Source: an uncultured Chlamydiae bacterium
GTDB lineage: Bacteria > Chlamydiota > Chlamydiia > Chlamydiales > Parachlamydiaceae
Assembly (NCBI GenBank): GCA_963830365.1
Contig: CAWHMU010000002.1
Coordinates: 1 to 36,007, forward strand
Direction: 5' to 3'
Length of the DNA: 36,007 nt
Shown here: in pieces, positions 1,847-3,256 of the stretch
How the letters are laid out: each line of letters starts with the position of its first letter
Position numbering within the stretch: position 1 is the stretch's first letter
The notes under the pieces: generated by a model
Told to the model about the DNA's origin: nothing
The model's database searches: none
Seen by the model: only the letters and a program-made list of their open reading frames with translations
Program-made: the position numbers and the translations under genes

Positions 1847-1929
1847 GGGAAGCGTTCAACGCAGTCGCTTTTGATCGTTAAACCGCGGGAGCTTAAGGAT
1901 AGGAATGAAGAGCCAGCTTGTAAAACACA

Positions 1930-1957
1930 ACGTCTGATAATATAGGTTATGTTGCGT
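1930..1957 (+). other. dif-like XerC/XerD recombination site
   Basis: ACGTCTGATAA-TATAGG-TTATGTTGCGT: 11-6-11 layout with ATAA/TTATGTT core as in E. coli dif. Confidence 0.55.
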
Positions 1958-1999
1958 TCGTGGGGTTTTTATGACGATAGCTGGCAGATCTAATCTGTC

Positions 2000-2201
2000 T
2001 TACGAAACGTAGATTTTGGCATCTTGAAGGTTGTCGCATCTGGCGCAGCGGAATAGCGCCATGTGGGTTTCAGGGCTTGGCGGGATCAAAACGAATGGCT
2101 GGCGTCAGGATATGCACCCATTTGGCATGGCCGCAGTCGCATTTGTTAAGTCTATGGTGCTGGATGCCGGGTTTATCCAGCCATTTGCAATCGCCGCACA
2201 T
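2000..2201 (-). pseudogene. small Cys/His-rich (Zn-binding-like) ORF, possibly frameshifted
   Basis: ATG2201: MCGDCKWLDKPGIQHHRLNKCDCGHAKWVHILTPAIRFDPAKP* (stop 2070); adjacent frame continues ETHMALFRCARCDNLQDAKIYVS* to 2000. Confidence 0.35.
2119..2201. repeat. 83-bp direct repeat, copy 1
   Basis: 79/83 identical to 3132-3214. Confidence 0.9.
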
Positions 2202-2222
2202 TATTTTCACTCTATTTTACAG

Positions 2223-2907
2223 CTAAAACAATTCAGCATGAGAGCCGAATCGAGTTAAAAACAAAACATCTTGGTCTATTTTATATATTAATAAAACATC
2301 ATTTCTAACATGGCATTCTCGATGATTCACCCAATTACCGGTCAAATTATGATCGCGATTTTTAGCGGGTAAATTCCTTTTTTTAGCTAAGAGTTCAATA
2401 ATGTCTTGTAACTCAAGAAGCACTTCTTTTTGAAACTTATATGGTTCATCACACAAATGAGTGGTTGACTTTGGGTTCTTCCGGTTTTGCAGGCCAAAAG
2501 CTTGAAGTAAGCCAAGAATTTTCCTAGGCGAAGCCCGTCTATTGTAGCCCGTCAGCTAAGGCTTGCGAGCGCAGCGAAGACAGCCGCAGCTACGGGTTTG
2601 TACAAAAACAATTGATAACCCCTTAGGGGTTCTTCTCTTTAGATACTTCCACCTTAATAGATTATAAAGAGAAGAACCCCTACGGGGTAGAGCACTTTTC
2701 TTGCTGTCCCGTAGCTGCGGCTGCATTCGCTGCGCTCGCAAGCCTTAGCTGACGGGCTACAAAGAGATGGGCTTCGCCTATGTCATGCTATGCATCTTTG
2801 TCCTGCATAACTGAATGAACCCTAAGTCAACCACTCATTTGTGTGATGAGACACTTATATTTTTTTCGATCTTTTTTTATAGCGTTGGTCAATTCGATTT
2901 TAAGCAT
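2223..2907 (-). pseudogene. yafQ: YafQ/RelE-family mRNA interferase toxin interrupted by MITE
   Basis: Removing 2443-2852 plus one ACTTATAT copy restores 88 aa MLKIELTNAIKKDRKKYKFQKEVLL...RDHNLTGNWVNHRECHVRNDVLLIY...RFGSHAELF; ATG overlaps antitoxin stop. Confidence 0.9.
2443..2852. mobile_element. 410-bp non-autonomous fold-back element (MITE), ISL3-like termini
   Basis: 8-bp target duplication ACTTATAT (2435-2442, 2853-2860); three nested inverted repeats (about 56, 72 and 24 bp); second arm copy at 35712. Confidence 0.9.
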
Positions 2908-3049
2908 TCGGATCGATGCCCACAATTTTCCAAAATTCTTCTATCGAGTTGCAGCGAGTAAGATTTTTTCCTTCATCGACGTCGCGCATCGCTTGTTGAG
3001 TCTCAGCATTGGGCTCATCATGCGGAATGTTCGGTCGAACATAAGACAT
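2900..3049 (-). CDS. short DinJ/RelB-type antitoxin (C-terminal neutralising part only)
   Basis: PNAETQQAMRDVDEGKNLTRCNSIEEFWK motif; directly upstream of and overlapping yafQ; promoter at 3069-3097 favours start 3049. Confidence 0.75.
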   Translation of the reverse strand: MSYVRPNIPHDEPNAETQQAMRDVDEGKNLTRCNSIEEFWKIVGIDPNA

Positions 3050-3068
3050 AATAAACTCACTAATCTTC

Positions 3069-3097
3069 ATTCTATCAAAAATAGTAATTGTAGACAA
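3069..3097 (-). promoter_or_regulatory. promoter of TA operon
   Basis: minus strand TTGTCT-17 bp-TAGAAT with extended -10 TG. Confidence 0.55.
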
Positions 3098-3101
3098 TCC
3101 T

Positions 3102-3131
3102 AGTATTAGGAAAGTCGACATCCCTAATACT
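3102..3131. promoter_or_regulatory. palindrome next to TA promoter (possible operator)
   Basis: AGTATTAGG-12 bp-CCTAATACT; abuts repeat copy 2. Confidence 0.35.
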
Positions 3132-3214
3132 CATTTGGCATGGACGCAATCGCATTTGTTAAGTCTATGGTGCTGGATGCCGGGTTTATCCAGCCATTTG
3201 CCATCGCCACACAT
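3132..3214. repeat. 83-bp direct repeat, copy 2
   Basis: 79/83 identical to 2119-2201. Confidence 0.9.
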
Positions 3215-3227
3215 CGATGCTTTAAAG

Positions 3228-3256
3228 TCCTGTATGTGTCTATATTATCAGACGTT
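3228..3256 (-). other. inverted, degenerate dif-like site
   Basis: 3240-3256 is a perfect 17-bp inverted copy of 1929-1945 (XerC-like arm plus most of spacer); XerD-like arm not conserved. Confidence 0.45.

Follow-up and report, generated by a model that had tools for sequence, protein, structure and literature searches.

The window analysed here is the whole of contig C2 (36,007 bp) from an assembly of an uncultured Chlamydiae bacterium, which comprises 48 contigs and 2.73 Mb and is 82% complete. The three best relatives of its kbl gene (4245-5426) are found in Parachlamydiaceae genomes, with 72-73% identity. Close to the left end of the window, a perfect 17-bp inverted repeat (1929-1945 and 3240-3256) noticed in a preliminary description of this DNA was confirmed as exact on re-checking. 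Allowing up to two mismatches, the 17-mer has no match in the assembly other than these two, and from the base composition the chance of a second copy within 4 kb is about 1e-6, compared with about 0.002 for a second exact 11-bp arm. As had been described, the left copy runs on into TTATGTT to give a full 11-6-11 site at 1930-1957, and the right copy lacks the XerD-like arm, keeping one arm and five of the six spacer bases. The ends of an insertion sequence or MITE were rejected as the source of the 17-bp repeat, because a comparison of the flanks (1921-1928, 3257-3264) shows no direct repeat and only two copies are present in the assembly; a transposon end with target duplications, named at the outset as the finding that would speak against Xer sites, is thus not what lies at the repeat. 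Elsewhere in the window, a P-loop kinase-like gene (675-1846) with a paralogue on C44 is split near 1035 into two overlapping ORFs, a tandem repeat with a 9-bp period lies at 15250-15337, and an imperfect inverted repeat with 96-bp arms lies at 26808-27030.

The interval between the two copies had been described as holding only a toxin-antitoxin (TA) pair and a Cys-rich ORF, and its content is both richer and more decayed than that. The Cys-rich gene is present twice, each copy broken. Copy A (2000-2201, minus strand), the homologue of which is intact in the related genome G019, is a frameshifted pseudogene in which the distance from the conserved Trp to the Cys is 73 nt, one nucleotide off the frame. 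Its first 28 codons form copy A (2116-2201) of an 86-bp direct repeat, 94% identical to copy B (3129-3214), which is a truncated Cys-rich gene on the minus strand with the conserved Cys5 changed and a stop at codon 28. This repeat encloses the TA unit, its two copies lying precisely at the points where the resemblance to other TA copies ceases. Within it, a yafQ-family toxin gene on the minus strand is left in two pieces, a 3' piece at 2223-2442 (PF15738, E = 3e-26, profile positions 21-87 only; 85% DNA identity to the gene of G010) and a 5' piece at 2853-2907, the translation of which matches the N-terminus of intact homologues. The gene is split by a palindromic, non-coding insertion element of 410 bp (2443-2852), which occurs on many contigs, is flanked by an 8-bp target duplication (2435-2442 and 2853-2860) and has a full-length copy with 95.5% identity on C18. 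The ends of this element are common to larger elements on C38, C29 and C33 that carry a 465-aa IS110-family transposase gene. A second, partial copy of the nested-palindrome element is located at 35712-35897 of the window, and related repeats are found in G019. The yafQ start codon overlaps the stop codon of the antitoxin gene, of which a remnant with its promoter persists (2900-3128, minus strand; -35 at 3097, -10 ending at 3069). The antitoxin, RelB-like by a weak, below-cut-off match of its intact homologue, has lost its 5' end through a deletion of 123 bp (measured against G394) comprising the ribosome site, the start codon and the N-terminal part. With yafQ split and the antitoxin start deleted, a live TA module was rejected.

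The TA unit is a block of about 650 bp with 83-87% DNA identity between genera whose SMC proteins are 44-45% identical to that of the window genome, and no Xer arm was found at its ends in 11 other loci aligned. YafQ gave at least 106 matches in 46 of 73 genomes; among the matches listed, those of the window genome, G010 and G382 are the three at a distance of about 1 kb or less from dif, the pairs of the latter two being on the opposite side of dif relative to the window. High identity across divergent genera, without Xer arms at the ends, suggests that the TA pair likely moves horizontally, and it also likely favours the neighbourhood of dif. Nothing ties this movement to the two Xer sites of the window. 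What had been proposed as a cassette amounts to decayed cargo at the side of an ordinary dif. In G356 (C1:1707284-1707584), a yafQ fragment starts about 140 bp from a lone dif arm, 10 kb from dif.

The Cys-rich gene belongs to a family of eight small proteins with the pattern CxxCxW...CDCG...RCxxCD, the product of the window's gene being about 65-70 aa when intact. Family members (P0001-P0009) range from 64 to 87 aa, with CxxCxW and CDCG invariant and RCxxCD near-invariant, and judging from these motifs the proteins are probably zinc-binding. No family for the Cys-rich protein was found in Pfam, PHROGs or NCBIfam. Searches with it returned unnamed clusters only in the Atlas, no match or only itself in word-based protein searches, and no relative in viral scans, in which its alignment gave one weak match of 26% identity.

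The left site (1930-1957, plus strand) is the only complete dif of the genome, with the left arm at 1930-1940, the spacer at 1941-1946 and the TTATGTT arm at 1947-1957. The two arms are called here the XerC and XerD arms by their position, in analogy with Escherichia coli. The 28-mer has a single match in the assembly even at seven mismatches. With up to two mismatches, the dif motif was found in all 41 genomes searched, exactly once in 32 of them, while a reversed-pattern control gave 13 hits in 10 genomes. GC skew sampled along G343, G331, G200 and G325 is positive before dif and becomes negative at dif or shortly beyond it, and in G356 seven of ten samples left of dif are positive and eight of ten right of it are negative. 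On contig C2 itself, the cumulative GC skew has its maximum at 2170, with only 1.9 kb lying left of dif; the skew is +0.10 left of dif, about -0.01 for the following 17 kb and -0.055 thereafter. Because other contigs also switch, the skew of C2 alone gives weak support for a terminus, and codon-position skew did not pin the terminus in this fragmented assembly. The alternative suggestion of the preliminary description, accretion at the true chromosomal dif, is supported by these data, since the genome has one copy of a site that is conserved and that coincides with the skew switch in five relatives, and since two other genera have related yafQ pairs at a distance of 0.7-1.0 kb from dif.

Chlamydial dif sites have been predicted before, as stated in the available part of PMC3025954. 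The window genome shares with the chromosomal dif system of XerC, XerD and FtsK a 28-bp site of 11-6-11 layout, one per chromosome and at the switch of GC skew, together with ftsK and an xerC-like gene that scores below the curated cut-off; xerD was not found in this 82%-complete assembly. All five relatives examined have two Xer-sized recombinases, one of which, from G382, scores as XerD. The xerD gene of G382 (L163:4731-5630) lies less than 3 kb from dif, and the two Xer genes of G356 lie 0.5-0.8 Mb from it. What differs from the known system is that the left arm is the more conserved one here and is reused singly many times around the terminus. Exact complete sites of the window's dif type, with varied spacers, are also carried by 79 viral contigs (L194-L272; many of 35-41 kb), and some tested neighbours of viral sites of this type (L169, L171, L218 and L254 as examples) encode a terminase, portal protein, primase-helicase or RecT. 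The genome G005 has a second complete site in a similar phage-like region, which suggests that tailed phages may use the host Xer system. A phage origin of the Cys-rich gene or the TA pair beside dif-like sites was rejected, as neither is present in the 79 viral loci.

The right site (3240-3256, minus strand; arm at 3245-3255) consists of a single ACGTCTGATAA arm directed toward dif, with the start of the Cys-rich gene 41 nt downstream of it. In G019, the same arm lies 42 nt before an intact 70-aa Cys-rich gene and faces dif 1.4 kb away; in both genomes, the Cys-rich gene is oriented toward dif like its arm. The 12-bp arm is identical in the two genomes and its flanks align poorly; between arm and dif, G019 has an unrelated 305-aa gene and no TA pair, and the outer neighbours differ too. 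At the right site of G019, the second (TTATGTT) arm is also absent, and the spacer is unlike that of the G019 dif. Of five genomes compared by their SMC proteins, G019 is the nearest (71% identity; the others 44-56%, with no match in G003). Since G019 has the arm and an intact Cys-rich gene without the TA pair, the right arm is likely older than the TA pair, as judged from this comparison. The junction of arm and Cys-rich gene was found in these two genomes only, which are mutually closest among those tested. Among 401 genomes sampled from the order (a sample without G019), the window genome was the sole match to the arm-plus-start pattern, and the one locus found in a metagenome collection, L314, agrees with the G019 contig in length and position and is not independent.

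The layout of the locus had led the preliminary description to a dif module mobilised by Xer, as known from Acinetobacter. The corresponding explanation would be a decayed pdif-like D module, with two once-complete inverted sites enclosing variable cargo, the right XerD arm having been lost later. The geometry fits, and so does the difference between the window genome and G019 in the DNA between arm and dif, as do the related yafQ pairs close to dif (about 1 kb or less) in two more genera; extra complete sites in some relatives and in the 79 viral contigs could donate cargo. According to the available text of PMC13141974, a 5/6 spacer match is enough for inversion between complete Acinetobacter pdif sites. 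The modules described in the available parts of PMC13141974 and PMC12907356, the latter reporting chromosomal dif modules in Acinetobacter, likewise have inverted sites with the XerD side inward, near-identical spacers and TA genes in between. They differ from the window, as far as those sources describe them, in that here the one complete site is the chromosomal dif, no array of modules is present, and the cargo is broken with its boundaries off the Xer sites. The spacers are nearly identical in the window (5/6) but not in G019. The motif search found one complete site in the assembly and neither an array nor alternating C and D modules. Moreover, the right site is one-armed in both genomes, the homology of the TA unit stops at the 86-bp repeat instead of at Xer sites, the 11 other TA loci have no end arms, in G010 and G382 the TA pair occupies the opposite side of dif, and the viral loci carry neither the Cys-rich gene nor the TA pair. 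The arm-plus-Cys junction was found in two genomes only, and a module of this type is considered unlikely.

Two further explanations of the right site were weighed, and both appear improbable. In the first, the locus is the scar of an integrative element exploiting Xer (IMEX) of the TLC, GGI or CTX type that entered at dif, the right site being its att site, of which the XerC side is intact and the XerD side divergent. The available text of PMC5357621 does describe attP-TLC and difGGI near dif as sites in which a divergent XerD arm stands beside a preserved XerC arm and spacer, and the Cys-rich gene is patchy, being present in three of 73 family genomes. Against such a scar, the third of these homologues, in G022, has no arm upstream, and no replication or phage gene adjoins the locus. 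Integration at dif leaves direct repeats, and the window has inverted ones. Inverted sites of the CTX type are separated by 90 nt, those here by 1.3 kb. The second explanation, given a similarly low probability, holds that the arm is an operator at which a bound Xer protein represses or tunes the promoter of the Cys-rich gene. The distance from arm to start is kept (41 and 42 nt) although the surrounding DNA has diverged, and a -10-like hexamer lies within the arm, but the promoter scan calls none at the arm, G022 has the gene without the arm, and the lone arms of relatives are often inside genes or read into gene ends.

Lone arms of this kind are widespread in the order. They were scanned for with three slightly different degenerate patterns. 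In 19 family genomes, picked mainly for contiguity, the 12-bp arm pattern gave 108 matches compared with 20 for reversed controls. On the main contigs of G356, G331, G325 and G113, 26 of 27 lone arms are within 350 kb of dif, where a share of 22-29% would be expected (three matches on a second contig of G331 are outside this count). A control search for the TTATGTT arm gave 14 hits, which are scattered over five genomes and of which not one falls within 350 kb of dif. The lone arms are also polar: in a tally made by hand of arms sharing a contig with dif, which was possible in 31 genomes, 98 of the matches listed point away from dif and 17 toward it. By genus, again among the matches listed, 18 lean away, five toward and two tie (P = 0.011, kinship ignored). 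This tally is exclusive of genomes without a lone arm on the dif contig, of 109 further matches and of one G397 variant row that would add one site and one genus to those pointing toward dif. The two sites of G233 that point inward are surrounded by DNA with mostly reversed skew, which may have been inverted.

The lone arms sit inside unrelated coding genes, for example aroC, and nine pairs of them are spaced 65-69 bp apart. Same-strand pairs with this spacing are found in unrelated genes of several genera (L054, L058, L060, L062-L065), smaller groups of pairs occur at 34-36 and 44-52 bp, and the spacing may reflect cooperative binding. In G356, G209, G200, G331, G343 and G032, the arm of dif itself strays from the consensus that the lone arms keep. 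For 69 lone-arm spacers, the mean match is 2.7 of 6 bases to the dif of the same genome and 2.6 of 6 to other difs. The better consensus fit and this spacer comparison argue against lone arms as copies of dif, an origin that was rejected. Taken together, the location in genes, the paired spacing, the preserved consensus and the spacers unlike those of the genome's own dif point to the lone arms being selected candidate binding sites, not recombination scars. General promoter elements were ruled out by genomic context.

Within this set, the arm of the window is an atypical member, because it is the sole one in its assembly, points inward and has a spacer like that of its own dif. Arms with one mismatch are not enriched in this assembly (22 compared with 28 for the control), the orientation toward dif is the minority one, and a 5/6 match to the own dif spacer is shared by only three of 69 lone arms. 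This match hints at past recombination with dif or copying from it.

The excess of lone arms goes along with scpB. Outside the family, 13 scpB-positive genomes have 63 lone arms compared with 30 controls, and 19 scpB-negative genomes have 18 compared with 22 controls. At the level of family groups, a genome with an excess of at least three was found in seven of nine scpB-positive and one of 12 scpB-negative groups (Fisher P = 0.002; one family was divided into two groups since it has members both with and without scpB), and the genome-level comparison of excess with scpB gave P = 0.044 (Mann-Whitney), both tests being uncorrected for phylogeny and genome reduction. There are exceptions in both directions: the complete genomes G368, G010 and G004 have scpB and no lone arm, and G370 has three outward lone arms without scpB. 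The window genome encodes SMC (above the cut-off), ScpB and FtsK. Searches of five genomes for MatP and Tus found neither.

A polar array around the terminus could also be a Tus/Ter-like fork trap bound by Xer or by a protein of the same specificity. In the available text of PMC10331603, fork traps consist of sites that flank dif in opposite orientations. Tus itself was not found in the five genomes. The motif is exactly one dif arm, though, the arm excess tracks scpB, and many genomes have no array, so that a fork trap is regarded as very improbable. The orientation switch at dif is a likeness to both the KOPS and the Tus/Ter motifs described in that source; the chlamydial motif differs from these in being a recombinase arm confined to the terminus region, with Tus not found. 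The polar array of lone arms is a real pattern that is best filed, from the sequence comparisons, as a variant of XDS-like terminus sites. In the terminus of Bacillus subtilis, XerD unloads Smc-ScpAB at such dif-like sites, as reported in the available parts of PMC11840125 and PMC11894783, which cite Karaboja 2021. Relative to what these parts describe, the two systems share dif-like sites scattered in the terminus region, the presence of Smc-ScpAB and the absence of MatP. The chlamydial sites differ in matching the XerC-side arm by position, in flipping orientation across dif and in number (0-15 exact copies per genome). The likeness is also limited by the binding protein, as XDS is bound by XerD and the window's arm is of the XerC side by position.

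For the locus itself, we favour, as the somewhat better-than-even reading, that the left site is the single dif of the chromosome and that the right site is a lone arm, which likely is a terminus landmark for Xer binding, passed on by descent, and not one end of a mobile cassette. The arm and the Cys-rich gene would have been the original neighbours of dif; a TA unit moving horizontally would then have entered the Cys-rich gene, leaving the 86-bp duplication, and finally a deletion and the palindromic element would have killed the TA pair.

For the lone arms in general, the analogy with known Xer sites suggests that they likely bind a Xer recombinase and thereby organise the end of the chromosome. 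One recombinase would sit on each lone arm as a non-recombining roadblock, at which Smc-ScpAB coming from the origin would be unloaded in the manner of XerD at XDS. According to the available text of PMC2800217, a monomer of E. coli XerD on a half-site is about five times more effective in stopping FtsK that meets its outer face than FtsK that meets its inner face, and XerC alone binds weakly without stopping FtsK. An outward-pointing arm would therefore show FtsK its permissive inner face on the way to dif and its blocking outer face on overshoot. The unloading at XDS, the face-dependent stoppage of FtsK and the outward polarity are the reasons for reading the arms as Xer-bound roadblocks; that their function is SMC unloading, with the orientation set by FtsK traffic, is by analogy a proposal with slightly less than an even chance. 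The fuller hypothesis, that environmental Chlamydiae use polar arrays of single Xer half-sites both as SMC unloaders and as a one-way valve for FtsK, is offered more tentatively still. No report of chlamydial half-site arrays or dif modules was found among the papers listed in the literature searched, which covered few subscription journals.

In summary, the cassette as first proposed is of little importance, and the lone arms to which it led bear, as polar candidate Xer sites, on the organisation and segregation of the terminus in Chlamydiae, which are FtsZ-less. Their motif offers a practical marker of the terminus for fragmented chlamydial genomes. If the proposed role is true, it would be a second use of a dimer-resolution recombinase, exerted via the arm opposite to that expected from Bacillus, at sites that are embedded even in coding genes and disappear together with SMC, and the XDS principle would reach a third lineage and gain an orientation rule.
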